DNA of 47,268 nt from a candidate division WWE3 bacterium (GCA_038231515.1 JBBRLF010000003.1:1-47268); one strand, 5' to 3'; shown: positions 2-29,720, counted from the stretch's first letter. Notes: generated from the letters alone by a model not told the origin. Translations and numbers: made by a program.

Positions 2-40
2 GGGGTAAAATAACGCATCGGGGGTCAAAACGTGATTCGG
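2..40. repeat. Two degenerate ~19-bp-period direct repeats, possibly an IS21-like element end
   Basis: GGGGTAAAATAACGCATCGG (2-21) vs GGGGTCAAAACGTGATTCGG (21-40), 13/20 identical. Reiterated GGGGTCAA boxes are typical of IS21-family ends. No transposase for it is present in the window. Confidence 0.2.
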
Positions 41-2800
41 TCATTAACCAGGGTGGCAGACTGCGAAGACAGCTTTAGTTCCGCGCAAATGCGCGGCCCT
101 GCGCTCAGATTAGTTTGCGAGCACGTTTTATCGGTAAACAATGGACTCTCTCAGTATGGGGTCACGACCGACCAAAACGGCTTAATAACTGGCATCACTG
201 ACCTGCACAACAGCGAAACCAGGACCAACGATGCGAGAGGCCGCGTCCTCACACGGTCGTTCACGAGTGGACACGTTCTCACCTATACGTGGGACGACTT
301 TGACCGCTTGACCGCGATCAGCGACAACACGGGACCTTCGATTTCAATGGTTTTCGACATTATGGGCAAGATGCTCTCGCGCTCGGTGACGCCGCTCGGT
401 GGTGGAACTTCGCAGACGACGTTCTACACTTACGATGATCGCGACAGGCTCACACAAGTGACGAACCCGAAGGGTGAGATCACGAAGGTCGGCTACAACA
501 TCATCTCCGTTGGCTGCCATGTGCGCGATCTGCCTACGTCCATCGCCGACACCGGCGGCCGCGTGACGACGATGCAGTACGATAATCGGCAGCGACTCAC
601 GCGTGTGACCGATGCGAACGGCCACGTGACACGCGCCGAGTATAACGCGAGAGGCGAGAAGATCGCTGTCACTGATCCGAATGGGAACCGCGCGACGTTT
701 TCTTATGACGGCAACAGCCGCCTTGTACAGCAGACGCGGCCCGTGGCGATCTCTGGAACTGGCGGCGCTCCGCTGTCGGCCACTCAGATTACAAACTACT
801 CTTACGACACCGCTGGACGCCTTACCTCGTCGGACAAATACGCGCTCGGCATCGCTAACGCGACGCACTCGACGCTTGCTCTCGCGTACGATCCGCTCGA
901 CCGTGTGATCCAGAAGACACTCATGACCGGATCAAACGTCGATGACAGCTCAACCTTCAGCTACTCGCGACAGATCGACAATGTTGCGCGGATCTCGGCA
1001 AACAACTCCGTGGCGAGCTTGAGCTTCATCAACGAGACGGCTCCGCCGTTTTTGATGTCGAGTTACAGCATTACTGCGGGCTCTGCTGGCGGTGCCCTGA
1101 ATCTCACTCAGGGTACGTTTAACATCGGTCGCGACGTGACGGGCAACATCGCCGCTGTCAGTGGTCCGAATGGGCAGCTCTACAGCGCTGGATACGATCC
1201 GGCGGGCAGACTCACCGGCATCCAGTCGGGCTTCAACGCCGCGAACTACTCGGCCACAATCGGCTACGACGGCTTCGGGCGAAAAAACTCTGTCACGCAC
1301 TCGACGGGCCTGGCAGGAACCTATTCGTATGACCTGTTGAGCAGGATCACGGCCATCTCCTGGAACGGCTTCGACGGCGAGACTGCCCAAGCGATGAGCG
1401 AAAATCTGGCGTATGACCCCGCCGGAAATATCACCTCAATCACACGTGAACTCGGCGGCTTCGACTTCTCTTACGACAGCATCGACCAGCTCGTCAGCAC
1501 GGGCTTCGCCCCGAGCCAGGGCGTGAACCTCGGTGCTCTCGTGAGCCGCCAGTGGTCGTGGGACCCAGCGGGCAACAGAGCCGGTGACAACATCAACGGT
1601 TCGAGCGTGTTCTTCGCGAACTCGATTCTCTCCGATGCGCTTCACAGCTATCAATCCGACTCGATGGGACTTGGCAACGTCGTGCAGAAGAATACGCCAG
1701 CGGCCCAAGTCATCGACCTGTTTAGCTACAGAGCCGACTCGCGAGTCACTTCTTACATGAACGTGACCGACGTGAACGGAAACGGTGCTTACGATCCGGG
1801 CGCGGACACGATGAACAGAAGCGGTCAGTTCTACTACGATGCTCTCGGGCGTCGTGCTGCGAACGTGATCTCTAAGGGCGGCACGAGCTTCACGCAAAGC
1901 TTCTCGTACCTCGGTGATCGTGGTCGATTCCTAACGACGACTGCCGGTGACGGTAGCACGCGACTCTACCTCGATGCCAAGGGCCTCAACGAGCACCTCG
2001 CTGAGATCGGGCCTTCGGGCGTCAAGGCGTTCGTGAGCGATCACCTCCTGAGTGTATTGAATGGACCGGTCGCCGGTGGGTCGATGGCATTCGGCGCCTT
2101 CGGTGAGAGTCTCGGAAGCGATCTAGTGCTCAATGCTTCGTCCGATCCTGCATCACCGGGCTATGCTGGCTACCGCTTCAGCTCCTTGATGAGAATTTAC
2201 GAACTCGATCACAGGCTTTATGACCAAGAGAGCGGCCGCCATCTATCGAGCGATCCGCTCTCGAATGGTGGTTCTTACGGCTACGTTGGTGGAAGTCCTG
2301 TGAAGTACGTTGACCCGCTCGGCCTCTCGCGCGGCGTGGTCACGCCGGATCGCCGTCACATGGACGTTTATCCGGGCAATACACCTGACACGCAAGGTCC
2401 GCCTCAGCGAGTCGACATCGGCAATAACACCACCAACCCGAACGGCGATCCGAACACCGTCGGCAGCCACGGTCCTGCTCCGGCTGGAACCTTCCCGGTT
2501 CAACCGCCTGTACGAATCCCGAGCGATAGCGACGAGGCCACGTCTTACGGGACGGTCTTCTTCCCGATAGGATCTGTTGACTCGAACGGCAATCCAAGCG
2601 ACATCGCTCGTCAGCGCGGAATCGGTCTGCACGGCGGCCGCAACGGGCCGGGTTCTAGGACTGAGGGCTGCCTGCGAGGCAACAACTCCGACCTGGAAAA
2701 CCTGTTCAACCAGAACCAGTCCGATCCTCTCACTACGATAACGATACCGCCGCTTCCACCAGTGGAACTGATTGAGACGTTCGAGACGACTCTGCCATGA
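32..2800 (+). CDS. RHS/YD-repeat polymorphic toxin, 5'-truncated, with C-terminal L,D-transpeptidase-fold (Tlde1/DUF2778-like) domain
   Basis: Many YD repeats (YTYDDRDRLTQVT, YDPAGRLT, YDALGRR). RHS core LYDQESGRHLSSDPL...SPVKYVDPLGL. The C-terminus has GPAPAGTF and IGLHGG-x7-TEGCLR. In-frame TAA at 11-13; the first ~36 aa are not RHS-like. Confidence 0.85.
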   Translation: MIRSLTRVADCEDSFSSAQMRGPALRLVCEHVLSVNNGLSQYGVTTDQNGLITGITDLHNSETRTNDARGRVLTRSFTSGHVLTYTWDDFDRLTAISDNTGPSISMVFDIMGKMLSRSVTPLGGGTSQTTFYTYDDRDRLTQVTNPKGEITKVGYNIISVGCHVRDLPTSIADTGGRVTTMQYDNRQRLTRVTDANGHVTRAEYNARGEKIAVTDPNGNRATFSYDGNSRLVQQTRPVAISGTGGAPLSATQITNYSYDTAGRLTSSDKYALGIANATHSTLALAYDPLDRVIQKTLMTGSNVDDSSTFSYSRQIDNVARISANNSVASLSFINETAPPFLMSSYSITAGSAGGALNLTQGTFNIGRDVTGNIAAVSGPNGQLYSAGYDPAGRLTGIQSGFNAANYSATIGYDGFGRKNSVTHSTGLAGTYSYDLLSRITAISWNGFDGETAQAMSENLAYDPAGNITSITRELGGFDFSYDSIDQLVSTGFAPSQGVNLGALVSRQWSWDPAGNRAGDNINGSSVFFANSILSDALHSYQSDSMGLGNVVQKNTPAAQVIDLFSYRADSRVTSYMNVTDVNGNGAYDPGADTMNRSGQFYYDALGRRAANVISKGGTSFTQSFSYLGDRGRFLTTTAGDGSTRLYLDAKGLNEHLAEIGPSGVKAFVSDHLLSVLNGPVAGGSMAFGAFGESLGSDLVLNASSDPASPGYAGYRFSSLMRIYELDHRLYDQESGRHLSSDPLSNGGSYGYVGGSPVKYVDPLGLSRGVVTPDRRHMDVYPGNTPDTQGPPQRVDIGNNTTNPNGDPNTVGSHGPAPAGTFPVQPPVRIPSDSDEATSYGTVFFPIGSVDSNGNPSDIARQRGIGLHGGRNGPGSRTEGCLRGNNSDLENLFNQNQSDPLTTITIPPLPPVELIETFETTLP

Positions 2801-3333
2801 AAACGAAAAGAGGGTCGATCATGAGATGTTCAATTCTTCTGCCAGCGATTCTGCTTGGGTGCCTGAGCTTCGGAACAGCGTGCGCGACAGCTCCGAGCAT
2901 CGTGAAAAACCTTGGGACATCGAACTCGCCCGACGGAGGCTGTCGTACAGATCTCTCTGTGAGCACCATGGGCGGGGCGAAGGTCCTGCGCCTGACCATC
3001 GGAAACGAAACCACCCTAGAGGTGAAGGACGTAACGGCGATCGCTTGGGCCGAGGACTCGATCCTGGCCTTCAGCGTTAGCCCGGTCTACGGAAAGCCTG
3101 GAATCTTCACCTACGACTGTCACTCACGCCAGAAGCAGCAACTGGTTGCGCCAAAGACCATCAACAAAGGGTATCCCCACGGCGCCGATTACTTCGATCT
3201 GTCTGGTGTCTCCGGCGACAAGGGAAAACGCGTCGTGGAGTTCTATCGTGTCGACGATGTCGACTCGAAAGAGTTCCTGAAGCTTCACACAAAAGAGCAT
3301 CTGGAACGTGTTCCTCTCCACACTCACGAGTAA
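2797..3333 (+). CDS. Putative periplasmic/lipoprotein immunity protein of the RHS toxin
   Basis: ATGA overlap with the RHS stop (alternative start 2821). Hydrophobic N-terminus with possible lipobox LLGC. Small, directly downstream of the toxin tip. Confidence 0.6.
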   Translation: MKTKRGSIMRCSILLPAILLGCLSFGTACATAPSIVKNLGTSNSPDGGCRTDLSVSTMGGAKVLRLTIGNETTLEVKDVTAIAWAEDSILAFSVSPVYGKPGIFTYDCHSRQKQQLVAPKTINKGYPHGADYFDLSGVSGDKGKRVVEFYRVDDVDSKEFLKLHTKEHLERVPLHTHE

Positions 3334-3424
3334 GTGAGCACCAGGCCAAAAACGCAGCCACGGGGCGATAAACGCGTTTAGCGGGTAAGCAGGAAGCAGA
3401 CCTCGAAGCTTCGACGAGAGTTCC

Positions 3425-3464
3425 GGACCTGCCGCCACTTGCGGGCCAGGTCCTTTTGCTTTTT
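3425..3464 (+). terminator. Intrinsic terminator after the toxin-immunity pair
   Basis: GGACCTG-CCGC-CACTT-GCGG-GC-CAGGTCC hairpin followed by TTTTGCTTTTT. Confidence 0.65.
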
Positions 3465-3515
3465 GCCAAATCTGCGGAGCAAATCTGATGGCCGCCTTGA
3501 TAGCCGGGTAGGACT

Positions 3516-4686
3516 TGTGCTCTGTAAATACTCATACGGAGACCCACCAGATGCCCGATTTCCAGCATTAAACTGCTCAAGCTGATCCAATATTATTCCG
3601 TCACGCGATATTCGTGATGGAGACCACCCAAATATGGAAATGCGCTGATTACTGACGTCGAAACCGGCGGATTTCGAGGGCCCTTTTCCCCGTTTTCCAT
3701 GGCCATCGGAACCCGCTGATCGATTCCCTGGTGGCAGCGCGCGGTATTATAGTACAAACGATACTCGTCAAGCACCACCTGCAAATGCTTGCGGCCCGAA
3801 AAGAGGAAGTGATCGGTGCACTCCCGCCTGATGCTGCCAATAACCCGCTCAACAAAACAATTAGCCATGGGCGCGTACACAGGAGTCATTGCCACGCGAA
3901 CCTTTCGAGATACCAGTAAATTTTTAACATCCGCACCTCGGAAGATACTGGCATGGTCGTGGATAAGAAGGTCAGGCGTGCTACGCTCAGCCATCTCGGA
4001 GCGCAAGACGTTGGCGACCCACTCACCATCGGAAATAGGTGTGACACTCGTAGCGATGAGCACCCGATTCTTGATATCCAGTATGACCAGCACGAAAAAG
4101 GTCTTGAGAAACGCCGACTCGACCGTGAATAGGTCAATTGCCCAGGCAGTCTTGTGCATCGTTAGGAATTGACGCCATTTCATTGATGGAAGTCCGCCAC
4201 CGGGATCCTCGCCAGCGGCACGCAAGATATTGCGCACGCTCGACTCAGACAACCGATATCCCAGCTTCAAAAGCTCGCCGTGCAGCCGCTTGGCGCCCCA
4301 GATTGGGTTGCTTCGTTTCATTCTCACGACGAAAGCAATGAGATCGTCCGCTACAGATGGGCGCCCGGCGCTCCCGCTTTTCTTGAAAGTCCATTTCCAG
4401 CGCACCAGTCTCTTATGCCATTCGAGGATCGTTTCCGGCTTCACGATATAACAGGCTTCGCGCCAACCGCGCAGGGCTAGAGCCAGCTTCGTTAGAATCT
4501 GGCGATCATGCGGTAGAAACCGCGGGCGGCCTTCGTTTCGCCGATAAACCTGAAGCTGGTACCGAAGATAAAGATTTTCGAGGCGCACCTGGTCGGTCGA
4601 GGAAATGATCCCACGCAGAAACATGGCGACGAGCTCGATAAGATCGATCATGACAAAAAATCATACGCTGGCGTGCCCACGTCACA
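3516..4686 (-). mobile_element. Insertion sequence (IS481/IS3-superfamily-like, single ORF); ends tentative
   Basis: Contains the DDE transposase. Candidate termini TGTG (3516) and CACA (4686), within a 6-bp IR CTTGTG/CACAAG. No target duplication seen. Confidence 0.4.
3593..4651 (-). CDS. DDE transposase (integrase core domain)
   Basis: LENLYLRYQL, HTH NPIWGAKRLHGELLKLG, catalytic WAID / IHDH / FVERVIG, YYNTARCHQGI, C-terminal GGLHHEY. Confidence 0.9.
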   Translation of the reverse strand: MIDLIELVAMFLRGIISSTDQVRLENLYLRYQLQVYRRNEGRPRFLPHDRQILTKLALALRGWREACYIVKPETILEWHKRLVRWKWTFKKSGSAGRPSVADDLIAFVVRMKRSNPIWGAKRLHGELLKLGYRLSESSVRNILRAAGEDPGGGLPSMKWRQFLTMHKTAWAIDLFTVESAFLKTFFVLVILDIKNRVLIATSVTPISDGEWVANVLRSEMAERSTPDLLIHDHASIFRGADVKNLLVSRKVRVAMTPVYAPMANCFVERVIGSIRRECTDHFLFSGRKHLQVVLDEYRLYYNTARCHQGIDQRVPMAMENGEKGPRNPPVSTSVISAFPYLGGLHHEYRVTE

Positions 4687-4798
4687 AGGGGTGAAAAGTG
4701 CCGGTACGCCAATTACCGAACCAGCGTCATATGCTCCCGACAACGCAGCCGAAGATTAGCCGCACGCGCCCGCTTCCAACGTAATTCCAGCAAACCGC

Positions 4799-6076
4799 TC
4801 ATAACGCCCCCGTAAGCAACCGCTTCAAACCATCAAACGAATGCTCAATAATATCTGCCGCATAATTAAAATCAAGAATAGCCGCCGTATCGCCCGGCGT
4901 ATGCAGATTCGGATTAAAGAACTTAAACGGCGAATCACATTTCAAATTCGAGCAGGCCTGCTCGCTAATCGAAACGCCAGGCACGCCAATGTCCCAGAAA
5001 GCGATCTGATCGCTGCTATAGATGAAAGTTTCGCGCTCGATGATGAGCGACTTCAGCTTTGCCGTATCGCCCGCAAAGTATTCAGCCACTTCACGCCCAA
5101 ACGCCTTGTCGTAACCCACGTTAACCACAGCCTCGTGCTTCTCAGGCGAGCCGTTGTAAGCGATCATGTCAAAGTTGACCATCCACAGAATCGGACGCTT
5201 CATCAAAAGATGCGCAAAAGCGATGCTGCCAATCAGGCCTTCTTCTTCGCCCGAAAAATGCGCCAGAATGATGTCGCACTTGATGTTCTGCGGCTTGCTC
5301 ACCGCCAGCCAGTCGCGCAGGCCGCGCGCAAGCGTCAGTACCGCTGCCGTGCCGCTGCCGTTGTCGTCAGCACCGGGCGCAAGGGTTGCCGGCGAGATGA
5401 TCGGGCCCCGGCCACCGCCATCGCGGGCCACACTGTCCATGTGCGCGCCAATCACGCACACCGGGCGTTGAAACACTTCGCCACCCAGGTCGCCAGTAGG
5501 CAGATAGGCCAGCACATCGGGCCAGGTTGTTTGCGTGCGTTCGGTAAGTAGTTTTTTGGTGATGCTCGTAGAATGTTCAATCGTCGTGTGAATGTAGGTC
5601 TCAACCCGGTCTTTCACCGCGACTTTGCAAAACGAGTCTTTTTCCAGCCCAACTCGCTTCAGCCGCTTTACAACCGTATCAAGCTTATCGGCTGGCAACG
5701 TGCCCGCGCAAAGCCCGTCAAAGTCGGAACGCAACATCGGCATCATGTGCACGAAATACGAACGATAGGTTTTGTCGGTATTTTGAAAATAAAACGGAAA
5801 TGCGTCCAGCGGGTCATAGTCCGCAATGCCCGCCTGAATTCCCAGCTCGTCGTATTTGGCTTTAAGGTATTGCGCCGTGGTTTGAATCTCGGGGCTGTCG
5901 CTAAAACGCTGGCTCAGGATATTGGGCAGGCCACCCACTCCAAGCTGGGCTGCGCCCGACAAAGACTCGATCAGGTTTTTTTGCTCAGTCGCAGACGTCA
6001 ACCCCTCTGCGCGCGCAGGGCCAGCAGCAAACGACAGGCAAGCCAGGCCCAAACTCAAGACGATGGTTAGTTTCAT
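4799..6076 (-). CDS. Secreted M28-family zinc aminopeptidase
   Basis: Signal peptide ending ARA; GAHMDS, GADDNGSG, GEEEGL, NFDM and HTPGD motifs. Confidence 0.85.
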   Translation of the reverse strand: MKLTIVLSLGLACLSFAAGPARAEGLTSATEQKNLIESLSGAAQLGVGGLPNILSQRFSDSPEIQTTAQYLKAKYDELGIQAGIADYDPLDAFPFYFQNTDKTYRSYFVHMMPMLRSDFDGLCAGTLPADKLDTVVKRLKRVGLEKDSFCKVAVKDRVETYIHTTIEHSTSITKKLLTERTQTTWPDVLAYLPTGDLGGEVFQRPVCVIGAHMDSVARDGGGRGPIISPATLAPGADDNGSGTAAVLTLARGLRDWLAVSKPQNIKCDIILAHFSGEEEGLIGSIAFAHLLMKRPILWMVNFDMIAYNGSPEKHEAVVNVGYDKAFGREVAEYFAGDTAKLKSLIIERETFIYSSDQIAFWDIGVPGVSISEQACSNLKCDSPFKFFNPNLHTPGDTAAILDFNYAADIIEHSFDGLKRLLTGAL

Positions 6077-9275: not shown

Positions 9276-9866
9276 ATGAATCGTGGATTAATTGCGTTGC
9301 TTGCCGTACTGGGCGTACTTGCCGTGGGAGTTCTGTGGTTTATCTCGGCGGGAAACTCGCTGGTGGCCAAAGACGAAGGTGTTAAAGCCGCCTGGGCCCA
9401 GGTTGAAAATGTGTATCAGCGCCGCATGGACCTGATTCCGAATCTGGTGAACACCGTAAAAGGCTACGCCACTCACGAGCGCGAAACCCTTGAAAAGGTG
9501 ATTCAAGCCCGCAATCAGGCCGTAGCCCCCGGAAAAGACCTGGCAACTGGCGACCCCAAGAAGCTGGAAGCTTTTCAGAAGTCTCAGGACGCCCTGGGCT
9601 CGGCACTCAGCCGGCTGATGGTCGTCGTCGAAAAATATCCTGACCTGAAAGCCAACGAAAATTTTCGCGACCTGCAAGTGCAGCTCGAAGGGACCGAGAA
9701 TCGCATTGCTGTCGAACGCAAACGCTTCAACGAGGTGGCGCAAGACTACAACTCGGCGATTCGCATGTTTCCCACCTCAATCATTGCCGGCATGCGCGGC
9801 CTGCAGGCCCGCGCCTATTTCCAGGCCCAGCAAGGTGCCGACACCGCTCCTAAAGTGCAGTTCTGA
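9276..9866 (+). CDS. lemA: LemA family protein
   Basis: N-terminal TM, YQRRMDLIPNLV, YPDLKANENF, LEGTENRI; GAGGAG RBS. Confidence 0.95.
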   Translation: MNRGLIALLAVLGVLAVGVLWFISAGNSLVAKDEGVKAAWAQVENVYQRRMDLIPNLVNTVKGYATHERETLEKVIQARNQAVAPGKDLATGDPKKLEAFQKSQDALGSALSRLMVVVEKYPDLKANENFRDLQVQLEGTENRIAVERKRFNEVAQDYNSAIRMFPTSIIAGMRGLQARAYFQAQQGADTAPKVQF

Positions 9867-10630
9867 TGCGCCCAAGCTTCTGGCTTCTTGCGCTAATCGC
9901 CTTTGTTCCCCATGGCGTGCAGGCCCAGACGGCGCTGCCCGACCGGCCCCACCACCATGTGAACGACTATGCGCAGGCGCTTGCCGGAAATGCCTTGGCG
10001 GGCCTTGAGCAAAAATTTGCGGCATTCGAAGCCAAGACCGGACATCAGGCGGCCGTCGCCATTTTTGCCGATCTTGGCGGCGCGCCGGTAGATGACTTTG
10101 CCAACAAGCTCTTTACGAAATGGCGCCTGGGCAGGGACAAGCAAAACGACGGCATCTTGCTGGTGCTGGGCTTGCGCGAACACGCGCTTCGAATCGAGGT
10201 TGGCTACGGACTCGAAGGGCAGCTGCCCGATGCGCTTGCCGGCCGCATAATTCGCGAAGAGATGGTGCCTTTTTTGAAGCAGGGCCAGGTAGCAACTGCG
10301 GTACTTGTTTTTGAAAAGCGCCTGGAAGATATCTTTGTCGATGGAAAAAATCTGGCGGCGGCACCGCCGCGCGCGCAGAAAAATCCGATACGCGATATTC
10401 TGATTGCGCTTATTGTGATGATCTTTTTGTACTCCATTTTTTTTCCGAAACGAAATGGCCGCAGTATTGGCGCCGGTGGCGTCTATGGCCGCAGCAACTG
10501 GTGGTGGTGGTTGGGTGGCGGCGGTGGTGGCTGGGGCGGCGGTAGTGGCGGAGGTTGGGGTGGTGGTGGCGACTGGGGCGGCGGCGGTGGTGGCATGTCC
10601 GGTGGCGGAGGCGCAAGTGGCAGCTGGTAA
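9866..10630 (+). CDS. TPM-domain (YgcG-like) protein with Gly-rich tail
   Basis: VNDYA, NDGILLV, RIEVGYGLEG, TM helix, GGGMSGGGGASGSW end; typical lemA partner. Confidence 0.92.
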   Translation: MRPSFWLLALIAFVPHGVQAQTALPDRPHHHVNDYAQALAGNALAGLEQKFAAFEAKTGHQAAVAIFADLGGAPVDDFANKLFTKWRLGRDKQNDGILLVLGLREHALRIEVGYGLEGQLPDALAGRIIREEMVPFLKQGQVATAVLVFEKRLEDIFVDGKNLAAAPPRAQKNPIRDILIALIVMIFLYSIFFPKRNGRSIGAGGVYGRSNWWWWLGGGGGGWGGGSGGGWGGGGDWGGGGGGMSGGGGASGSW

Positions 10631-11057: not shown

Positions 11058-11890
11058 CGCCGGGGAATTTCGAGCGGCCTGAGATAGTCACGCTCTTCTT
11101 TTAACCCGCGCTGATTCGTGCGCTCCCACAGCTTTATCCGCAGCGTCAGATGGTACAGCATGAAATAAAACACGGCGACCAGACCAGGAAATCCGTCTAA
11201 AAATCCCAGACGAAAAAAGTAATGGCGCACAAAAAACCGAAAGGCGCTGAAAAACGCGCCGTAGGTCATAACCACGTCGCCGGGCGCGAGCTCCTGGATT
11301 TTTTTGTCCGCATCGTGCTCGGTGTATTGATTGGTTTTGAGAAACCACTCTGCCAGCGAGTTCACGTTAAAGTGCTTATACACGTTCTTGAAACGCGCAA
11401 CCTTACCCTCTACCGAAAGACCGCGATGAAACCCGCTCTCGCAGGGATACTGCCATTTTCCACGGCGCACCATGCGTATCTCGGCTGAACGCGGATTGAA
11501 AATGCCATGCCGCAAAGGACGCCCCAGAAAGTAAAACATGTTTGGGATGCGCACGCCATTGGGCGACGTGGGCCCCAGCGGCTGCTCTAAAAACTTTCTG
11601 ATTTCGGCAAGCAGCTCGGCCGTGGGGCGCTCGTCGGTATCGATGTAAAGAATCCAGTCGCCCGTAGCTTGCTCCATGCCCAGCTTGCGATTCAGGTCGA
11701 AGTTACCCCCAGGCGGGTCATTGCGAATGAGCCGACAGCCCAGCTTCTGAGCAACCTCGGCCGTCTGATCTGTGCTCATCTGGTCGGCCACGATGATCTC
11801 GTGTGCAATGGGACGCCACGGCTGAACCGTCGTCTCAAGACGATCGGCGCAGTTTCGCGCCGCAATGACCACCGACAACGTTGCACTCAT
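11054..11890 (-). CDS. Glycosyltransferase family 2 (LPS/LOS beta-1,4-glucosyltransferase-like)
   Basis: LSVVIAARN, MSTDQT, WILYIDTDE (DxD), YFFRLGFLDGFPG. Confidence 0.88.
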   Translation of the reverse strand: MSATLSVVIAARNCADRLETTVQPWRPIAHEIIVADQMSTDQTAEVAQKLGCRLIRNDPPGGNFDLNRKLGMEQATGDWILYIDTDERPTAELLAEIRKFLEQPLGPTSPNGVRIPNMFYFLGRPLRHGIFNPRSAEIRMVRRGKWQYPCESGFHRGLSVEGKVARFKNVYKHFNVNSLAEWFLKTNQYTEHDADKKIQELAPGDVVMTYGAFFSAFRFFVRHYFFRLGFLDGFPGLVAVFYFMLYHLTLRIKLWERTNQRGLKEERDYLRPLEIPRR

Positions 11891-11935
11891 GGCTTAAACC
11901 TATTGCGGTTATGTGGCATAATCAAGCCAGCAACC

Positions 11936-12808
11936 ATGGGCACGAAGAAAACTCTCTTTGATCGCAAGTTTGGGTCTGAATTCATTGACAGCGTACCGCT
12001 TTGCCCGGGCGTCTACGAGATGCTCGACGGCGCCGGCACCACGGTTTACGTTGGCAAGGCCAAAATACTGCGCCGACGCCTGCAACAGTACCGCAATGCC
12101 CGTCGCTGCAAGAAGCACCACAAGATGCGAGCCATTCTTGGTGATGCCGCCTCGTTGCGCTTTACCGCCTGTACGAGTGATCTGGAAGCCCTGCTGCTGG
12201 AAAACGAGCTCATCCGGCGGCTTCGGCCCCGCTTTAATATTGCCGGGGCTTTTTCCTTTCTCTATCCCTGTGTCGGACTACGCCGCGACGGACTCAATCT
12301 GTATCTGTGCTATTCAACCTCACCCGCTGACTATCCCATGTTCGATTTTTTTGGCGCCTTTCGCTCGCGCGAACTCACCCGCGAGGGCTTTATGGCCCTG
12401 CTCGAGCTGCTTGGGCACATCGGACACCGCGAGCCCCTGAAAAAGCTCGGTGCCTTTCCGCGTGTGCGCTACTCGATTGTCGCCGGTTTTAGACAGGTGG
12501 GCGAGCAGTGGCTACCCCTGCTTGAGGCGTTTTTGCGAGGCGAATCCAAGGAATTTCTTGAAAAGGCCGTAATGGCGCTGGTGGAAAAACCTTTTGCGCG
12601 CAAACATGCCGCCCAGGTGCAGGAGCTGCTCGACACCGTGATGCGGTTCTATAAGTTCGAGGCGCGCCCCCTGCGCAGAGCCATGAAAGACGTGGGGCTC
12701 GAAACCAAGGCCATCAGTCAGCAAGATCGCGACGGCGTGTTTTTACGGTCGCGGCACACGCCAAAGCCAGCAAAAATCAAACGCGCGGGGTTCGTGCCGC
12801 AAGCTTAA
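11936..12808 (+). CDS. GIY-YIG nuclease (UvrC N-terminal/Cho-like)
   Basis: PGVYEM...VYVGKAKILRRRLQQY, EALLLENELIRRLRPRFN. Lacks the UvrC C-terminal half. Start ATG 11936. Confidence 0.8.
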   Translation: MGTKKTLFDRKFGSEFIDSVPLCPGVYEMLDGAGTTVYVGKAKILRRRLQQYRNARRCKKHHKMRAILGDAASLRFTACTSDLEALLLENELIRRLRPRFNIAGAFSFLYPCVGLRRDGLNLYLCYSTSPADYPMFDFFGAFRSRELTREGFMALLELLGHIGHREPLKKLGAFPRVRYSIVAGFRQVGEQWLPLLEAFLRGESKEFLEKAVMALVEKPFARKHAAQVQELLDTVMRFYKFEARPLRRAMKDVGLETKAISQQDRDGVFLRSRHTPKPAKIKRAGFVPQA

Positions 12809-13331
12809 CGGCGTTTCTTAGGGTTTCGCGCAGAACTTCCATCTGGCCCTCGGCGCGCAGATCGCCCAAGCCCAGCTCATGCAAGCCCATGGCCGACACC
12901 TGAACGCCATGCAGACGCAGCAGATACGAGGCCGCAACAACGGCGGTACGCCGGTTGGCGTCTTTAAAAACGTGGGTTAAAACCAGATGCGCATAAAGAT
13001 CTGCGGCTGCCTCGACCACTTCGCCAGAAGCCGCGCGATCTTTGGCTGTTCTAAGTAGGTCTTTGGCCTTGGTAATAGGGTCGGCCAGAATTTGCAGATT
13101 TTCTTCGCGGCCCGAGGGCAGATTGCATACTGCCGAACCTTCCCGCCAGGGCTCGGTTTTTTCACCGCGCAAAACATTGTTGATGCGCGCCAGCTCGGCC
13201 GTATTCAGAAACGCCCCGCTCTCAACCATGCTGTCGACAACTTCCAGCGCGCGCTCAAAACGGGCGCGCTCAAGCTGGCGTTGCAAAAAATTCGGATTTC
13301 GTGGGGCGGAATGATCGTCTCTGTGCGGCAT
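12777..13331 (-). CDS. Fic/Doc family protein (Doc-type motif)
   Basis: HVFKDANRRTA motif. Confidence 0.8.
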   Translation of the reverse strand: MPHRDDHSAPRNPNFLQRQLERARFERALEVVDSMVESGAFLNTAELARINNVLRGEKTEPWREGSAVCNLPSGREENLQILADPITKAKDLLRTAKDRAASGEVVEAAADLYAHLVLTHVFKDANRRTAVVAASYLLRLHGVQVSAMGLHELGLGDLRAEGQMEVLRETLRNAVKLAARTPRV

Positions 13332-13343
13332 GCACTCTTTCTA

Positions 13344-14567
13344 TCACCAGCCCAAGCCAAAGCCAATTTTACAATTGCCCCAAGCGCCGCGCACATCATG
13401 ATTATTGATGGGGCCGCCATAGTTTCTTTCCAAATCACAGCCCCCTTCGAATATTAGCCGTTGGCCGGTCGAATGGTGACGGGTTCGAGGCACTTCCCAG
13501 GCCAGATTCAGGCCGCCGCCCCACCCTGGTGAAGTACCCGCCGAGCTGATCATTCCCCGAAACCCAAGCTCGGCGCTTAACGTCAGGTAGCGGTGCGGCC
13601 AGAAAGCATAACCGTAGGAGTGGCGCGTAAGAAACGCAGCCGTTGTGCCGCCGGTTTTGGTCGTGTCATGCAGCGAGGTCGCGTGCACCTCGACGGTAAA
13701 GCCCTGGTGGGCCCACCCCAGATACGCAAAACGCAGATAGTACGAGGGGCTGGGGCGCAGCGCCTCCCAACCCGCATCACGAAACGGCAGAATGGACGCC
13801 GCACCCACGCTCAGCGCACCTCGCATATGGCCATCCCAGACGACCTCCTGCTTCTGGTTGCGATTGAATTCAAGGTCGGGCTTGGTGTCGCAGCCTTCCA
13901 CCCAGGGTAGATACACTTGCAGCCAGTCATGAGTGGTCAGCTCTTTGGGGTCCGGAAACTTCACCACCTCAAGGTACTTGAACTTGGGATTTATCGTGAC
14001 GGTGCCGCGCGTGCGATATTCGTGCGTCGGCTTGCCGTCGTCGAAAAGATACTTGTGGTACTCGGGGTACAACTCGGGATGCGACTTGGCGTCGGGCCGC
14101 CCCTCGACGTGGGTATAGGCCTGCTGCTGCACCTCGGAGTTCAGCGATTTTTTAACTTCTTCTTCATTTGGACTGCCGCCACGACGTGAAAAATACCGCG
14201 GCTTCTCATTATCGAACCGGTATTCGACCGGAATCCATTTCAGCTTGTGCTCTTGCTTGTCAGCCGCAGAGACAATCAGAATGACATACGTGCCGTAAGG
14301 ACGCTGGCGCAGGTACCCGTCAAAATGGAGACCGCAGGCGGTGGTCGTATCCAGCGCCCGGCTACCCTGACGACCGTTCCACCCATTGAGCCGGGTACTC
14401 TCTTTTCCGACGACCTGATGTATGTACGCGTCGGGATCGACCTCGTCGATCAAAGGACCGATATGCCGGGGCCAGCGCACCTCAATGTAATTCCATTCGC
14501 TGGTATGCTCTTCATGAGCAAAACCGGGAGCAATCGACAGTAGAACCGCAAAAAGAATGGCGTGCAC
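13344..14567 (-). CDS. Hypothetical secreted protein with probable C-terminal outer-membrane beta-barrel
   Basis: Signal peptide, alternating amphipathic strands in the last ~160 aa, terminal aromatic residue (GFGLGW). Confidence 0.55.
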   Translation of the reverse strand: MHAILFAVLLSIAPGFAHEEHTSEWNYIEVRWPRHIGPLIDEVDPDAYIHQVVGKESTRLNGWNGRQGSRALDTTTACGLHFDGYLRQRPYGTYVILIVSAADKQEHKLKWIPVEYRFDNEKPRYFSRRGGSPNEEEVKKSLNSEVQQQAYTHVEGRPDAKSHPELYPEYHKYLFDDGKPTHEYRTRGTVTINPKFKYLEVVKFPDPKELTTHDWLQVYLPWVEGCDTKPDLEFNRNQKQEVVWDGHMRGALSVGAASILPFRDAGWEALRPSPSYYLRFAYLGWAHQGFTVEVHATSLHDTTKTGGTTAAFLTRHSYGYAFWPHRYLTLSAELGFRGMISSAGTSPGWGGGLNLAWEVPRTRHHSTGQRLIFEGGCDLERNYGGPINNHDVRGAWGNCKIGFGLGW

Positions 14568-21222: not shown

Positions 21223-21370
21223 CCCGGATTTCTCACCATCTTTCGTCGCGAGGGCGCGGAGCTGCCGCGTGGTTGCACGCGCGCAGGGGTGAGCGAGCGA
21301 AATCCCCGAGCACGTGCGACCACGCGAGCAGATCCACGGCCGCAGCAGAAAGCTGGTGAGAATTCCGGGC
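21222..21370. mobile_element. 149-bp palindromic MITE-like element flanked by TA
   Basis: Terminal IR 23/25 (21220-21244 vs 21348-21372, including the TA), internal IRs 7/8 and 15/17, GGGG/CCCC apex. TA on both sides. Confidence 0.65.
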
Positions 21371-22578
21371 TAGAAGCCTTCTTCTTTCTTGAAGCCGGAC
21401 AGACGCATCTTGAGATCTTCGGGCGAGTTGCTGGCGAAGATCGCATCTTCGTTCGTAACCGTGCCGGCCATTACCAGACGTTCCAGGGCCTGATTGAAGG
21501 TCTGCATCTTGTAGTAGGTCGTCGAGCTGGCCATCGCCTCGTTGATCTTGTCTATCTCGCCGGTCAGGATGAGATTTTCGATGGTCGGACTCTTGATCAG
21601 CACCTCGCACACGGCAACCCGGCCTTCGCCATCGGCGCGCGGTACGAGCTTCTGGCTGACGATTGCAAGCAGGCAGGCGCTAAGCTGAATGCGCACCTGA
21701 TTTTTCGAGGCTGGCGGAAAAACGTCCACGATGCGATCGATGGTCGATTTGGCGTCGTTCGTGTGTAGCGTGGAAAACACGAGGTGACCGGTTTCGGCCG
21801 CGGTAAGCGCGGTTTCAATGGTTTCGGTCTGGCGCATTTCGCCAATCGTAATCACGTTGGGGTCCTGGCGCATGGCGCCCATCAGGGCATCGTGCATGGT
21901 CAAGGCATCGCTGCCCACCTCGCGCTGCGAGACGCTGCTCTTCATGTCGCGATAGACGAACTCGATCGGGTCTTCAATCGTCACGATATGCGAATGGCGG
22001 TTTTCGTTGATGTGATTGATCATCGCGGCCATCGTGGTTGATTTGCCGCTGCCGGTGCTGCCGGTAATCAGAACGAGTCCACGCTTTTTCATCGCGAGTT
22101 CTTTGAGTACAGGCGGCAGATTAAGGCTTTCCAAACTTGGAATCGTAAGCGGAATCATGCGAATCACGCCGGCAACCGTGCCTCTTTGCACGTAAACGTT
22201 GGCGCGAAACCGGCCCATGCCTTCGAGCAGAAAGCTGCAGTCAACCTGGCAGTTTTTTTCGAAGTCGCGAATGAGCTTGTCGCTCAGAATGCCGTAAAGA
22301 ATCTCTTTCACCGCCTCGGTCGAAAGCTCGGCCATCTTGGCGGCCACGAGCTTGCCGTTGATGCGATACATGGGCGGACGACCCGACTTGAGATGCAAGT
22401 CAGAAGCCCCATGCTTGAGCAACGCATGCAGCAGATATTTCATCGAAGGGCGGCCACTGGCCGGGGCCGCTGGCGCCGGAGCGGCAGGCGCGATACTCGT
22501 CACGCCGGTACGCGTTCCGCCGGTTGCGGTTTCTGGTGCGGCGGCTGCTGGTGGCACTGCCTTTAATGGAGCGCTCAT
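21370..22578 (-). CDS. pilT: Type IV pilus retraction ATPase PilT/PilU family
   Basis: ASDLHL, GRFRANVY, GSTGSGKST, TIEDPIE, RQDPNVITIGEMR, AETGHLVFSTLHT. The AIRNLIRE motif is replaced by TIENLILT. Confidence 0.9.
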   Translation of the reverse strand: MSAPLKAVPPAAAAPETATGGTRTGVTSIAPAAPAPAAPASGRPSMKYLLHALLKHGASDLHLKSGRPPMYRINGKLVAAKMAELSTEAVKEILYGILSDKLIRDFEKNCQVDCSFLLEGMGRFRANVYVQRGTVAGVIRMIPLTIPSLESLNLPPVLKELAMKKRGLVLITGSTGSGKSTTMAAMINHINENRHSHIVTIEDPIEFVYRDMKSSVSQREVGSDALTMHDALMGAMRQDPNVITIGEMRQTETIETALTAAETGHLVFSTLHTNDAKSTIDRIVDVFPPASKNQVRIQLSACLLAIVSQKLVPRADGEGRVAVCEVLIKSPTIENLILTGEIDKINEAMASSTTYYKMQTFNQALERLVMAGTVTNEDAIFASNSPEDLKMRLSGFKKEEGF

Positions 22579-23438
22579 GCCGCGTCTCCCGTCTTCTTAA
22601 GAGAGCCGGGATTTTTGAAGCCGTGCAGCTCTTTCGAAATTGCGGCCAGCATCAATCTGTTTTCGATAACCTTGGCGGCGTAGTCACAGATCGTAACCAG
22701 CACCTCTTTGTCGGCATCGGTATACTGGGGCTCACCCAGCCGGTTGAGCAGCTCAAGACAGCCAAAGGTAACTCCGCGAATCACGACCGGATAGGCGACC
22801 ATGTTCTTGGCTTCAAAGCCCACGGCATTGCTGATGGTGCTGAGATAGACACTGCTGTCGTCGATGCTCGAAAGCGCCATCGGCTGCTGATTTTCGCAGA
22901 CGAAACCGGCGATGCCCTGGCCCAGCGGCACCGTGAAGTTCAATAGTCCCTCTGAAGAACGGCCGGCGGCCGCGCGAAAAAAGAGACAGGTGTTCTGATA
23001 GTCGATTTCGAGAAAAGAACCGGCTTCGGATTTAACCTGCTCCATCGCGATGCGAAGGATTTCACTGATGAGCTGACCAAAGGTCAGCGAGTCGCGCGTG
23101 ACGAGCCGAAAAAGCGACTCCACCGCGGCAAACTTGCGATTGATGCAGAACAGACTATCGTTATCGACAATAGCGACTTGCGCCAGATCTTCGTCACTCA
23201 GCTGCATTTCTTTTCCAAACTCGCTGCCTTTACTTGGCGCAATGTTAGCTTCCTCCACGACGAGCGGGGAAATCGAGAGCGACGTAACCTCGGCTGTAAC
23301 GCCGGGGCTTTCCTCTTTTTTCACTTCATATGGATCGGACCCTTTCGGGGTCGGTTGATCCTTGAAAATATCGTCCACCGTTGCTCCTCGCTCCAGGATT
23401 TCAGCGAAATTCTTTGGGGACGGAGCGTTACCTGCCAT
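22575..23438 (-). CDS. Stand-alone GAF-domain protein
   Basis: LFFRAAAG, VPLGQGIAGFV, GFEAKNMVAYP, GCLELLNR, YTDAD. ATGA overlap with pilT; AGGAGGAG RBS. Confidence 0.85.
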   Translation of the reverse strand: MAGNAPSPKNFAEILERGATVDDIFKDQPTPKGSDPYEVKKEESPGVTAEVTSLSISPLVVEEANIAPSKGSEFGKEMQLSDEDLAQVAIVDNDSLFCINRKFAAVESLFRLVTRDSLTFGQLISEILRIAMEQVKSEAGSFLEIDYQNTCLFFRAAAGRSSEGLLNFTVPLGQGIAGFVCENQQPMALSSIDDSSVYLSTISNAVGFEAKNMVAYPVVIRGVTFGCLELLNRLGEPQYTDADKEVLVTICDYAAKVIENRLMLAAISKELHGFKNPGSLKKTGDAA

Positions 23439-24800: not shown

Positions 24801-24992
24801 ATGTCGCACTATATTACTAAAGAATGCGTCGACTGCGGTGCGTGTCTTGAAGCATGTCCGACTGACTCCATCATCAAAGGCGAAAAGATCTATCTTATCG
24901 ATGCCGATACCTGCACCGACTGCCTGGCCTGCGTGCCCCTCTGTCCAACCGATGCCATCAAAAAGCTGCCCGCCATAGCGACAAAACCGTGA
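24801..24992 (+). CDS. 2x[4Fe-4S] ferredoxin
   Basis: CVDCGACLEACP and CTDCLACVPLCP. Confidence 0.93.
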   Translation: MSHYITKECVDCGACLEACPTDSIIKGEKIYLIDADTCTDCLACVPLCPTDAIKKLPAIATKP

Positions 24993-26161
24993 GCAAAATA
25001 TTCTCTCTTGGAGTGATGACGGGTACGAGCTGTGATGGCGCAGATCTGGCGTTGCTGCAGATTAAACAAGGCGACGAGACCCTGGCGCATACCGCATCGC
25101 ATTCCTTTCCTGAACCGCTGCGCCAGCGCCTGCGTGCCGCGCAGGCCGGCAAACTCGATATTCCTGAAACCGCGGTCCTGACCCGCGACTATTCGGCCTG
25201 GCTGGCGCTCGTTTGCCGCCGTACACTTACGCGCTGGCGCGTGCCTGCCTCGGGCGTGCTGATTGCGATTCACGGACAGACTGTTTGGCACGCACCTGAG
25301 CGCGGCATCTCGGTGCAGCTGCTCGACCCGACGATCGTGGCTTTTCAAACGGGCTGCACCGTAACCGCGGCTTTTCGGCAACCCGACCTGGCACGTGGTG
25401 GCCAGGGCGCACCGCTGGTGCCGCTCTACCATTGGATGCGCGCGAACTCTGGCAGCTTTGCCAAGACGCTGCCCTTCGCGATTCACAATATCGGCGGCAT
25501 CGCGAATCTTACCTACATCACCCGTAACCAGCAGCGCCTCATCGCGTTCGACACCGGCCCCGGCAACGCCTTGATTGACCTGGCCGCCGAGCAGGCCAGC
25601 GGCGGACGGCTGAAGTTTGATAAAGATGGCAAGCTCGCCGCCTCGGCCCTTGATGCCATTGACTGGCGTGCCATTGAAAAACTCGGGCGACACGCATTTT
25701 TTCGCACGCCGCCCCCCAAAAGCACCGGCCGCGAACTTTTCAGCGGAGCCTTTCTGCGACAGCTTCCCGGCCGAGGCGCGACGCGCGTCGCAAACGCGAC
25801 AGCCCTGACTGCGCACACCATGGCAAAAGCCCACGTCGAATTTATCTTGAAGAAGGGGCACGTGCTGAACGGCGTTTTCGCTGCCGGCGGCGGCGCGCGC
25901 AACCCAACCTTGCTGCGGCTGTTTTCGCGTGAAATCGCTCGCCTGAGCGGCGAAGAGATTCCCATCGGGGTTTTGCCCGACAGCTTTGCGCCAGCACAAT
26001 ATCTGGAAGCAATGGCCTTTGCCCGCCTGGGCTACGAAGCCCTCAAGGGCAATGCCGTAAGTCTGGCCATCGTAACCGGTGCCGTCGAGAACGCCTTTGG
26101 CGCGGGCATTTTTCCGGGCGAAAACTATCGCCGGCTCTTAAAACGTCTCAACCTGACTTGA
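24989..26161 (+). CDS. anmK: Anhydro-N-acetylmuramic acid kinase
   Basis: GVMTGTSCDG, HGQTVWH, GGQGAPLVP, NIGGIAN, FDTGPGN, PKSTGRELF, GGGARN. Confidence 0.95.
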   Translation: MSKIFSLGVMTGTSCDGADLALLQIKQGDETLAHTASHSFPEPLRQRLRAAQAGKLDIPETAVLTRDYSAWLALVCRRTLTRWRVPASGVLIAIHGQTVWHAPERGISVQLLDPTIVAFQTGCTVTAAFRQPDLARGGQGAPLVPLYHWMRANSGSFAKTLPFAIHNIGGIANLTYITRNQQRLIAFDTGPGNALIDLAAEQASGGRLKFDKDGKLAASALDAIDWRAIEKLGRHAFFRTPPPKSTGRELFSGAFLRQLPGRGATRVANATALTAHTMAKAHVEFILKKGHVLNGVFAAGGGARNPTLLRLFSREIARLSGEEIPIGVLPDSFAPAQYLEAMAFARLGYEALKGNAVSLAIVTGAVENAFGAGIFPGENYRRLLKRLNLT

Positions 26162-27097
26162 AAGCACGAGCGCATTGCGAACTGGAATACTCATTCCGGG
26201 CGGTGGCGGCTCAATGCCGATAAAGCGCGGTCCGAAAACCGAGCCGTGTTCGGCCCATTCCGACTGTAGCCCCGTCATGACCACCGGCTGACTCAGGGCG
26301 GGCTTGCCCGCGTTGTGGCTCCAGCTGCGCGGCACCCAGCAGTCCGGCGAGTCCTCTCGCATTTTGGCCTCAATCAGCTTTCGCGCCAGGGGCAACTTGT
26401 GCGTGAGCTCAAACTGCGCGGCCGCATAGGTGGCAATCGAGCCGGTATCAAACCATTCCAGCTCTTCGCGAAACGCAAACAGGCGGCCTTCTTTGATCAG
26501 CGGCTCAAGCAGCGTGGGCCGCAGCTCGCTAACGCCGGCCGGTAGCCGCTCGAGCAGCTCGGGCTCAAGCAGGTAGCCCCCGGTAAACATGGTGCCCTGC
26601 GAGGCTTTTTCGCCAAGAGACAGCACGCGTCCATCGGCTCCGATTTGAATATTCGTATAAGGCTCGGCCGCATTGCTAAAGCTGCGAACGTGCAACGTCA
26701 GCAGCGCCTTGCTCGCACGATGAAACTCCGCCATGCGCGTCCAGGCCGGAAAGCAGATGCAGTCGCCGTTAATCACGGCAAGCAGGTCGGAGCCAATCCA
26801 GTCCGTGAGCTTCCACAGCGCACCCGACGAGCCCAGCACCTGCGCCGACTCATCGCTATATTTGAACGAAATGCCCGTGAATTTTTTCAGCTCAAGGTCG
26901 TCGCCCGCCTCCCGTACCGTGTCGGGGGCATGGCTGACGTTGATCATGAACGAGCCAATGCGCAGCTCAGACTTCAGATGCCAGGCCCCATACCAGAACG
27001 CGGGAATGCCCACGACTGGAAGACTGGGCTTGGCCCGGCCATACGTCAGCGGGCGAAGACGAGTGCCCAGGCCTGCGGCCAGCACCAGGGCCTTCAT
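26138..27097 (-). CDS. murU: Sugar-phosphate nucleotidyltransferase, MurU-like
   Basis: LAAGLGTRLRPLT...KP, INGD, WFDTG. Directly downstream of the amgK-like kinase. Confidence 0.75.
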   Translation of the reverse strand: MKALVLAAGLGTRLRPLTYGRAKPSLPVVGIPAFWYGAWHLKSELRIGSFMINVSHAPDTVREAGDDLELKKFTGISFKYSDESAQVLGSSGALWKLTDWIGSDLLAVINGDCICFPAWTRMAEFHRASKALLTLHVRSFSNAAEPYTNIQIGADGRVLSLGEKASQGTMFTGGYLLEPELLERLPAGVSELRPTLLEPLIKEGRLFAFREELEWFDTGSIATYAAAQFELTHKLPLARKLIEAKMREDSPDCWVPRSWSHNAGKPALSQPVVMTGLQSEWAEHGSVFGPRFIGIEPPPPGMSIPVRNALVLSSQVETF

Positions 27098-27107
27098 GCG
27101 CAGCTAC

Positions 27108-29712: not shown

Positions 29713-29720
29713 GCAGTCTT

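Follow-up and report, generated by a model that had tools for sequence, protein, structure and literature searches.

We analysed a 47,268-nucleotide stretch of DNA from a candidate division WWE3 bacterium (GCA_038231515.1, JBBRLF010000003.1:1-47268; this whole stretch is referred to below as the window), at one edge of which lie an open reading frame (ORF) for a 922-residue RHS-repeat protein and, directly after it, a gene for a small exported protein. In our judgement these are likely to be, respectively, the C-terminal part of an RHS polymorphic toxin, whose terminal domain (the tip) would be a YkuD-fold thiol L,D-peptidase directed against peptidoglycan stem peptides, and the cognate periplasmic immunity gene. 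This reading draws on the fold of the tip, its catalytic motif, its position behind a cleavage motif, the conservation of the gene pair in other genomes and a prediction of the tip-immunity complex that passes against its controls. The features on which the argument depends are as follows, with residues numbered along the 922-residue protein unless described as tip residues.

32..2800, plus strand: RHS ORF, 922 amino acids, GTG start, stop codon at 2798-2800
32..2326, plus strand: RHS/YD-repeat shell fragment (residues 1-765; Pfam RHS_repeat, E 2e-40, seven stretches)
2141..2326, plus strand: RHS repeat-associated core (residues 704-765; TIGR03696), the C-terminal plug and aspartyl-protease region
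2312..2326, plus strand: DPLGL (residues 761-765; sequence context YVDPLGL), autocleavage site predicted from the position of the motif
2327..2800, plus strand: toxin tip (residues 766-922, 157 amino acids; Pfam YkuD) plus stop codon, the coding nucleotides being 2327-2797
2471..2488, plus strand: GPAPAG (tip residues 49-54), a substrate-cleft motif common to YkuD-type enzymes, with P52 and G54 at least 90% conserved
2630..2632, plus strand: codon of His867 (tip H102), predicted general base, invariant in the alignments and aligned with YkuD H123
2669..2677, plus strand: codons of Cys880-Leu881-Arg882 (tip C115 and R117), predicted nucleophile and conserved arginine, invariant
2747-2797, plus strand: 17-residue tail of the tip, PPLPPVELIETFETTLP (tip residues 141-157), missing from 10 of 10 aligned relatives
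2797..3333 (ATG 2797, 178 amino acids) or 2821..3333 (ATG 2821, 170 amino acids), plus strand: candidate immunity gene
3593..4651, minus strand: transposase gene (rve_3 integrase core and HTH_32), 260 nucleotides downstream of the immunity gene

The tip comprises a YkuD-fold L,D-peptidase domain (tip residues 1-140) followed by the tail (residues 141-157). Searched alone, it matches Pfam YkuD (PF03734) with 27.2 bits against a gathering cut-off of 23.4 (E 6.6e-6), and its AlphaFold2 (AF2) model, computed from a 66-row alignment, has a predicted local distance difference test score (pLDDT) of 93.5 and a predicted template modelling score (pTM) of 0.85. When this model was compared with the Protein Data Bank (PDB) using Foldseek, all of the matches listed were L,D-transpeptidases or carboxypeptidases: the seven with E<=1e-3 include the L,D-carboxypeptidase Bd1075 (the best, E 1.4e-5), Bacillus subtilis YkuD and Pgp2, these are followed by DpaA (PDB 8ikr, rank 8, E 1.1e-3), Csd6 (rank 9) and Tlde1a, mycobacterial Ldt enzymes are also listed, and the Foldseek probability is 1.00 for the top 12. 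At the level of sequence, profiles were needed to recover these enzymes, the family profile finding Pgp2 (E 9.3e-5) and YkuD (E 2.7e-4) among PDB sequences. NCBIfam contains no family that matches either the tip or the immunity protein.

Residues H867, C880 and R882 align with H123, C139 and R141 of B. subtilis YkuD (PDB 1y7m), which we take to be the catalytic residues of that enzyme. The string HGGRNGPGSRTEGC, which starts at residue 867, carries T877-E-G-C880 and then R882, and across the 66-row alignment G75, H102, T112, G114, C115 and R117 (tip numbering) are invariant, with N33, P52, G54 and G104 at least 90% conserved. The full motif string upstream of these residues is GPAPAGTFPV, the GPxPxG element of which aligns with 'tPvGfY' of Pgp2 and with 'GPTPQGTY' of a genuine Tlde1_dom tip at one of the loci described below (L001). 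The histidine and cysteine are 13 residues apart, as they are in 59 of the 91 representatives carrying the motif, a spacing shorter than the 'HXX14-17[S/T]HGC' pattern as it is worded in passages of two published accounts (bioRxiv 10.1101/2020.02.18.954545, PMC9638812). The window's tail, over which the confidence of the model is about 70-83, extends beyond the point at which the 10 aligned relatives stop, 1-5 residues past a conserved 'ITI'.

The assignment of fold and motif consequently holds, as far as the model and the alignments describe the tip, and places it on the YkuD side of the superfamily rather than within DUF2778; by analogy, the domain would have thiol L,D-transpeptidase or L,D-carboxypeptidase activity on stem peptides. 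The original prediction, made from the nucleotide sequence, had located a 157-residue tip after DPLGL at nucleotides 2327-2800, with GPAPAGTFPV, H867 and C880, and was accurate in each of these placements (ORF 32..2800). The L,D-transpeptidase-fold motif that it had recognised is borne out by the 27.2-bit PF03734 match on the tip and by the register of its His, Cys and Arg with those of YkuD, and the fold comparison with YkuD that it had put forward as a check gave, with AF2 and Foldseek, the L,D-transpeptidases and carboxypeptidases named above.

The 765 residues that precede the tip form an RHS/YD-repeat shell fragment, also matched by NCBIfam YD_repeat_2x (E 6.2e-35), which closes with the Rhs_assc_core domain (NCBIfam TIGR03696, residues 704-765, E 6.5e-12, 45.8 bits against a cut-off of 32.5). 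Of the hallmarks of an RHS polymorphic toxin, the protein possesses the YD/RHS repeats and a core that ends in DPxGL ahead of a variable tip, but not a complete shell with an N-terminal plug and a secretion or loading domain. For Photorhabdus laumondii Rhs1, the parts of PMC8636562 that treat its processing describe a C-terminal cut right after the second of two DPLGL motifs, the aspartate of this second motif being catalytic. By analogy, D761 is the predicted catalytic aspartate of the window protein, and the cut would fall after L765, with the tip starting at S766.

Sequences related to the tip are numerous. A phmmer search of the full library returned 104 cluster representatives with E<=1e-3, many of which are metagenomic fragments (46 have E<=1e-10 and seven E<=1e-30); the domain is C-terminal in 75 of the 104, and 45 of them carry DPxG[LIVMW] no more than 80 residues upstream of it. 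Among the 66 alignment members 58 match YkuD and nine match Tlde1_dom (both at E<=0.01). All 12 full-length carriers that were scanned contain RHS repeats, 10 contain DUF6531, eight match YkuD (E<=0.001) and none of the 12 matches a PAAR family. Sec-signal-like N-termini, as judged by eye and by a crude count of hydrophobic runs, occur in about five of the 15 carriers of at least 1200 residues (P0004, P0009, P0061, P0085 and P0105). Between the window and each of seven full-length relatives (7/7) the tips are 58-63% identical and the shells only 24-28%, a pattern typical of a tip cassette shared among divergent shells.

In two family members (P0069 and P0083) the domain is joined to SLT and PG_binding_1 domains, as would suit an enzyme acting on peptidoglycan; small secreted stand-alone members also exist (for example P0022), and one relative (P0010) bears the public record name 'L,D-transpeptidase family protein'. 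A pattern search with the single tip gave 194 matches, none of them a relative, and tblastn of the tip against PLSDB plasmids gave no match. In a maximum-likelihood tree of 91 domain segments, from which rows with a profile match spanning fewer than 100 positions were left out, the window tip sits in an unresolved polytomy with an end branch of 0.61 and joins no supported clade, so that the tree carries no information on where the tip came from.

An 11-row alignment (A2) led to seven loci from reference genomes (L001-L007), five of which are proteobacterial and derive from metagenome-assembled genomes (MAGs): a gammaproteobacterial MAG, a Steroidobacteraceae MAG, a Proteobacteria MAG and two Nitrosomonas MAGs. 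The gammaproteobacterial locus, L001, contains at 2300-4830 a tandem array of orphan tip-immunity modules. At the Nitrosomonas locus L004 (3704-4321) the RHS ORF ends at 3870, just past its first DPIGL motif, and the tip is encoded by an overlapping 205-residue ORF in another frame, giving a frame break at the core-tip junction. The individual features at L001, together with the tip-family member of an archaeal locus considered further below, are given here.

L001, 2300-3214: genuine Tlde1_dom tip (41.2 bits)
L001, 3211-3744: 177-residue ORF with a signal peptide and no Pfam match
L001, 3737-4324: orphan copy of the window-type tip, starting inside the end of an RHS core
L001, 4330-4830: homologue of the immunity gene
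L006, 3860-4501: stand-alone tip-family member (YkuD 43.9 bits) with a Gly/Pro/Asp-rich tail

The candidate immunity gene offers two possible starts, the ATG at 2797 overlapping the RHS stop codon as ATGA and the ATG at 2821 being preceded by GAGGG. Its product begins with a signal peptide, first charged and then hydrophobic, in which LLGC may be a lipobox, and its mature part is modelled as all-beta (AF2 pLDDT 90.0); because the gene next to the tip encodes an exported protein, the periplasm is indicated as the place where the tip would act. In five of the five proteobacterial loci (L001-L005) an ORF of 166-183 residues with a signal-peptide-like N-terminus directly follows the tip, the products being 33-37% identical to the window protein; the immunity profile found no match in the locus DNA of archaeal L006 or of L007, a weak clostridial match.

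Built from six sequences, this profile collects 88 relatives, none of which has a Pfam domain; wherever the source gives a name, it is 'hypothetical protein'. With the window protein alone, a word-index search found only itself, and Pfam gave only weak matches to CARDB and DUF1801 (E<=1, under the cut-offs) and none to DUF2195 at E<=1. Foldseek comparison of the model with the PDB returned nothing at E<=1e-3 and a weak likeness to propeller blades (TolB, S9 peptidase; query-normalised template modelling (TM) score <=0.40), and the ESM Atlas returned only clusters named 'hypothetical protein' or 'lipoprotein', with scores of about 0.9, which are uninformative. On the combined sequence and model evidence ORF 2797/2821..3333 is a candidate cognate periplasmic immunity gene, for which protection itself is predicted.

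Prediction of a complex between the tip and the immunity protein gave an interaction prediction score from aligned errors (ipSAE) of 0.83 in three runs, compared with 0.00 for the best of three controls. In calibration, this mark of 0.83 was reached by 58 of 80 solved complexes and by two of 110 mismatched pairs, counts that hold only roughly because custom alignments were supplied for both chains. At least 92% of contacts are common to the runs, with a partner pLDDT of at least 91, and the lack of any PDB fold match to the partner at E<=1e-3 argues against a score that reflects a solved complex known to the predictor. On the tip, the confident interface consists of residues 95-100, H102, 104-106 and 109-115 (covering G104, T112, G114 and C115); on the partner it consists of residues 47-54, 70, 87, 89-91, 115-120 and 147-148, which hold eight of its 22 invariant or near-invariant positions (G51, G52, D70, Y90, G91, Y118, P119 and D148). 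The model thus supports a role for the immunity protein as an inhibitor that plugs the active site of the tip.

Taken together with what is known of related proteins, these results suggest a putative mechanism. By extension from Rhs1, the RHS shell would hold the tip until the aspartyl-protease plug cuts after DPLGL (D761), freeing the 157-residue domain. In the periplasm Cys880, activated by His867, would by analogy attack the carbonyl at the L-centre of residue 3 (meso-diaminopimelate, meso-DAP) of a tetrapeptide stem to form an acyl-enzyme, which would be resolved either by water, in an L,D-carboxypeptidase reaction that converts tetra- to tripeptide, or by a free D-amino acid, in an exchange reaction. 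Stems would in this way be removed from the normal transpeptidases and the sacculus weakened, as shown for Tlde1, with division failure and lysis as the expected outcome. In the producer's own periplasm the exported all-beta immunity protein is predicted to bind over the His/Cys cleft, blocking the tip. The substrate, the bond or reaction, the toxicity and the delivery route in this scheme are those that we infer for the window protein. Since Bd1075 and Pgp2, which head the fold and the profile matches, are L,D-carboxypeptidases, a carboxypeptidase-type reaction is slightly the better supported, though true transpeptidases and DpaA follow by small margins. At 36604-39545 the window also carries a lysA-like gene (ornithine/DAP decarboxylase type), dapA and dapB in a row, so that diaminopimelate is produced by the host, in agreement with a wall of the DAP type as the substrate expected for the tip.

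Several observations weigh against the interpretation of this locus as a working peptidoglycan-directed toxin. The PF03734 score is marginal, the whole 922-residue protein scoring 23.2 bits, under the cut-off of 23.4; the Foldseek TM-scores are moderate (0.44-0.59, query-normalised); and phmmer with the single tip against PDB sequences found nothing relevant, with a chance match to sorting nexin-12 (E 0.21). Between tip identity and immunity identity there is a correlation of r = 0.97, but its 15 pairs are not independent of one another, which makes it weak evidence. In the core, DPLSN stands as a degenerate form of the first DPxGL motif, and fewer residues than in relatives separate it from the second, so that autocleavage after DPLGL in the 922-residue protein is, by analogy, plausible but not assured. 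The archaeal (Methanophagales) MAG at L006 encodes its tip-family member without an immunity homologue at the locus, and the family may therefore not always represent a peptidoglycan-directed toxin; a Methanophagales archaeon should lack murein, and similar N-terminally starting forms (P0034, P0036, P0040, P0053, P0056 and P0107) group in the tree with 90/98 support. No T6SS (type VI secretion system) family or RHS secretion-system gene was found among the 48 window ORFs of at least 150 residues to which the scan was confined, and whatever precedes the RHS gene in the genome is beyond the end of the contig.

Further points concern completeness. The window makes up the entire contig, to judge from the longest contig recorded for its proteins (47,268 bases). 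The RHS ORF begins at a GTG just 32 nucleotides from the contig end, behind an in-frame TAA at nucleotides 11-13, and full-length relatives are 1200-1600 residues long, from which we conclude that the protein is a C-terminal fragment, a truncation at the contig edge that the original prediction had not seen. Its residues 29-67 align to positions 478-855 of seven of seven full-length relatives, the N-terminal 480-850 residues of which, including DUF6531, are either missing or beyond the contig edge, and the window shell corresponds to roughly the C-terminal half of theirs. The 922-residue protein shows no DUF6531, PAAR, signal peptide or N-terminal secretion/plug region, compared with a DUF6531 match in 10 of 12 full-length relatives. 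Because the TAA at 11-13 is in the RHS frame, and frame 1 has no stop between the start of the contig and a TAG at 76-78, thus overlapping the GTG at 32, the gene may be frameshifted or split near nucleotides 1-78 rather than starting at 32. Immediately beyond the tip-immunity pair comes the rve_3 transposase gene.

These features would be expected of the same module in a dead or dormant state. The ORF would then be what is left of an RHS gene after N-terminal truncation, whether as an orphan, as a pseudogene or as a fragment at the edge of the assembly, and its product could not be secreted; only the immunity gene would act, protecting against toxin-carrying neighbours, and the tip would serve at most as a recombination cassette. 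The tandem orphan modules of the same family at L001 also speak for this reading. We regard this as a realistic alternative, if one whose probability falls somewhat short of even. Set against it, an ORF of 922 residues free of internal stops is long for a decaying fragment, all catalytic and conserved residues of the tip and the immunity gene itself are intact, and the missing part may lie past the contig end. TcC-type proteins of similar size, moreover, function with a separate partner that supplies the remaining shell, and YenC2 and TccC are among the profile-search matches. The copy in the window is probably incomplete; instead of a weapon that can be deployed, it may be a module kept in store or orphaned.

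The remaining alternatives concern what the tip does. A YkuD-fold enzyme could act on another bond, through detachment of Braun-type lipoproteins from peptidoglycan in the manner of DpaA, through L,D-endopeptidase cleavage of 3-3 cross-links or through aberrant cross-linking. DpaA (8ikr) is indeed found at fold rank 8 (E 1.1e-3) and true transpeptidases are matched as well, and the domain of about 140 residues has no capping subdomain of the kind that, in the sections of PMC9638812 that discuss it, is linked to specificity in Tlde1a. With the L,D-carboxypeptidases Bd1075 and Pgp2 as the best fold and profile matches, and Csd6 at fold rank 9, we consider such an activity unlikely, the score differences between fold matches being small and deciding no bond. 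It is very improbable, finally, that the tip is not a toxin at all but a wall-anchoring or remodelling domain for the producer's own use (for example in passage of the RHS protein through the sacculus), followed by an unrelated lipoprotein gene. The fusion of P0069 and P0083 to SLT and peptidoglycan-binding domains, as found in wall-remodelling enzymes of secretion machines, and the existence of small secreted stand-alone members such as P0022 would suit that idea; yet RHS proteins carry their toxins in just this slot after DPxGL, the downstream gene accompanies the tip in five of five proteobacterial loci, the predicted complex places its product on the active site where controls score 0.00, and the same slot in the L001 array is occupied by a genuine Tlde1_dom tip (41.2 bits).

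Elsewhere in the window, the stretch containing the transposase has a G+C content of about 0.53 compared with 0.58-0.60, and no terminal inverted repeats delimiting a transposase element were found there. Beyond it lie ordinary chromosomal genes, among them an M28 peptidase, an XerC/D-type recombinase, a GIDA-family protein, ClpB, HtrA and the dap and lys genes. The window contains no second copy of the tip or of the immunity gene and no long repeats, and an Rfam search of it found nothing. A cluster at 24989-30679 resembles cell-wall recycling, the nucleotidyl transferase and APH-type kinase within it (26138-28184) being reminiscent of the MurU/AmgK pair of MurNAc salvage, and at 10513-10618 a glycine-rich imperfect repeat (GGxGGW-like, period 9-12 nucleotides, seven overlapping copies) occupies the 3' end of a TPM-domain gene at 9866-10630. 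The further genes recorded in these regions are the following.

11669-12808, opposite in direction to the Fic/DOC gene: GIY-YIG domain ORF
12777-13331, minus strand: Fic/DOC-family gene, adjoining a 407-residue ORF
13344-14567, minus strand: the 407-residue ORF, without a Pfam match
21370-22578, minus strand: PilT/T2SSE-type ATPase gene, directly after a GAF-domain gene
22575-23438, minus strand: the GAF-domain gene
24989-26161, plus strand: AnmK
26138-27097, minus strand: nucleotidyl transferase
27108-28184, minus strand: APH-type kinase
29792-30679, minus strand: LysM protein

The tip agrees with the definition of a class named 'Tox-LD-peptidase' by Zhang et al. in 2012 (PMC3482391), being a C-terminal RHS toxin with a linked immunity gene. 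In that survey's entry for the class, its members have conserved H, S and C residues, occur with RHS repeats and are trafficked by the type II secretion system (T2SS), the T6SS or TcdB/TcaC; what sets them apart from wall-associated L,D-peptidases is the RHS architecture together with a linked immunity gene, for which the families Imm16 (DUF2750; alpha+beta) and Imm57 (mostly alpha) are given. Likeness extends to the conserved H, S/T and C of a C-terminal L,D-peptidase domain on an RHS-repeat protein, to the predicted action on peptidoglycan stem peptides, and to lineages that, as listed in the same entry, include the beta- and gammaproteobacteria also present among the relatives found here. 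The window immunity protein, in contrast to the alpha+beta Imm16 and mostly alpha Imm57 of the catalogue entry, is all-beta, and since it also lacks a significant Pfam match it belongs to neither; immunity type is, however, an association of the class and not a strict requirement for it. The catalogue, as presented in the entry, was drawn up purely by comparative genomics (PMC3482391), and our searches of the open-access and bioRxiv literature turned up no experimental study of an L,D-peptidase tip carried on an RHS protein.

It follows that the module is not a new system, the tips in question having been catalogued in the 2012 survey's treatment of the class (PMC3482391). The original prediction had called it the best candidate for a new system in the window, which is at odds both with that catalogue and with the Rhs-DUF2778 fusions that, in the relevant passage of bioRxiv 10.1101/2020.02.18.954545, are counted in 11% (387/3510) of the genomes of one subfamily. 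Its broader proposal of an RHS-borne periplasmic peptidoglycan weapon stands with regard to the fold, the position after DPLGL, the exported neighbour and the likely target, and falls with regard to novelty and to the membership of Tlde1/DUF2778 that it had implied. What is new is modest, namely an unnamed immunity family, a placement on the YkuD side with 13-residue spacing, and carriers without a PAAR match. We would go further only tentatively, in suggesting, as a rather doubtful possibility, that these constitute an uncharacterised YkuD-branch effector-immunity pair, with an L,D-peptidase of about 140 residues, a fixed 13-residue spacing (GIGLHGGR....SRTEGC), an all-beta partner, somewhat similar to propeller blades, that plugs the cleft and, in view of carriers that have DUF6531 and in several cases signal-peptide-like starts but no PAAR match, possibly a route other than the T6SS by which the RHS cage would bring a wall-degrading enzyme to another cell's periplasm. 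To our knowledge, no such non-T6SS route to the periplasm of a competitor has been worked out experimentally for Gram-negative RHS proteins. In the window itself the module is of an ordinary polymorphic-toxin kind, lies at a contig edge and is probably truncated; for a tip class predicted since 2012, a small and confidently modelled enzyme of about 140 residues, with an equally small partner that has no known fold relative, would nevertheless make a pair well suited to structural and muropeptide studies.

Comparison with Tlde1a/Tldi1a, an L,D-carboxypeptidase/exchange effector (DUF2778) of the Salmonella Typhimurium T6SS, reveals the same superfamily fold and His/Cys pair. Carboxypeptidase and exchange chemistry were measured for Tlde1 according to the results presented in bioRxiv 10.1101/2020.02.18.954545, and in descriptions of Tlde1a its toxicity is periplasmic and neutralised by an adjacently encoded, Sec-exported immunity protein; an exported immunity candidate likewise lies beside the window tip. 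Tlde1a structures (7uo3 and 7uma) are among the fold matches, with E of 3e-3 to 6e-3, and hhalign of the tip family with the genuine Tlde1_dom tip gives 83% probability over an aligned stretch that also covers the shared end of the RHS core. Membership of Tlde1/DUF2778 (PF10908) was rejected, the tip scoring 12.9 bits against a cut-off of 30.1 (E 0.15), with the neighbouring Tlde1_dom tip at L001 (41.2 bits) as positive control for the model. No match between the Tlde1a sequence and the tip-family profile was found at E<=10. Further differences are that His and Cys are 13 residues apart in the tip and 10 in Tlde1a (H121 and C131, in the published numbering), that the window immunity protein is not DUF2195, that the window tip is carried on an RHS protein whereas Tlde1a is described as a small stand-alone T6SS cargo, and that the capping subdomain seen in Tlde1a and YcbB has no counterpart in the window domain of about 140 residues. 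The best fold and profile matches are with the housekeeping enzymes YkuD (1y7m), Pgp2 (6xj6), Csd6 (4xzz) and Bd1075 (7o21), with which the tip aligns in the (T/G)PxGxF/Y, H-G and (S/T)xGC(I/L)R motifs. These enzymes, however, are exported, carry extra domains (LysM, NTF2-like), shape the wall of their producer and have no immunity partner, whereas the window tip is a bare domain of about 140 residues in the toxin slot of an RHS protein.

In its architecture the window protein resembles P. laumondii Rhs1/Tre23 (7q97; as described in parts of PMC8636562), Pseudomonas protegens RhsA and Acinetobacter baumannii Tse15, all of which likewise have a YD-repeat shell, a C-terminal aspartyl-protease plug and an exchangeable tip behind DPxGL, with an immunity gene downstream. 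Those proteins are equipped for the T6SS with N-termini that carry PAAR or bind VgrG, and their site of action is the cytoplasm (as ADP-ribosyltransferase, nuclease and others). Experimental work on RHS tips has mostly concerned poisons that act in the cytoplasm, namely nucleases, ADP-ribosyltransferases, NADases and deaminases. The full-length carriers of the present tip, in contrast, show PAAR in none of 12 and DUF6531 in 10 of 12, several have signal-peptide-like starts, and their target would be periplasmic; for a tip directed at the wall, the RHS cage would need to bring its cargo across the outer membrane only, and not the inner.

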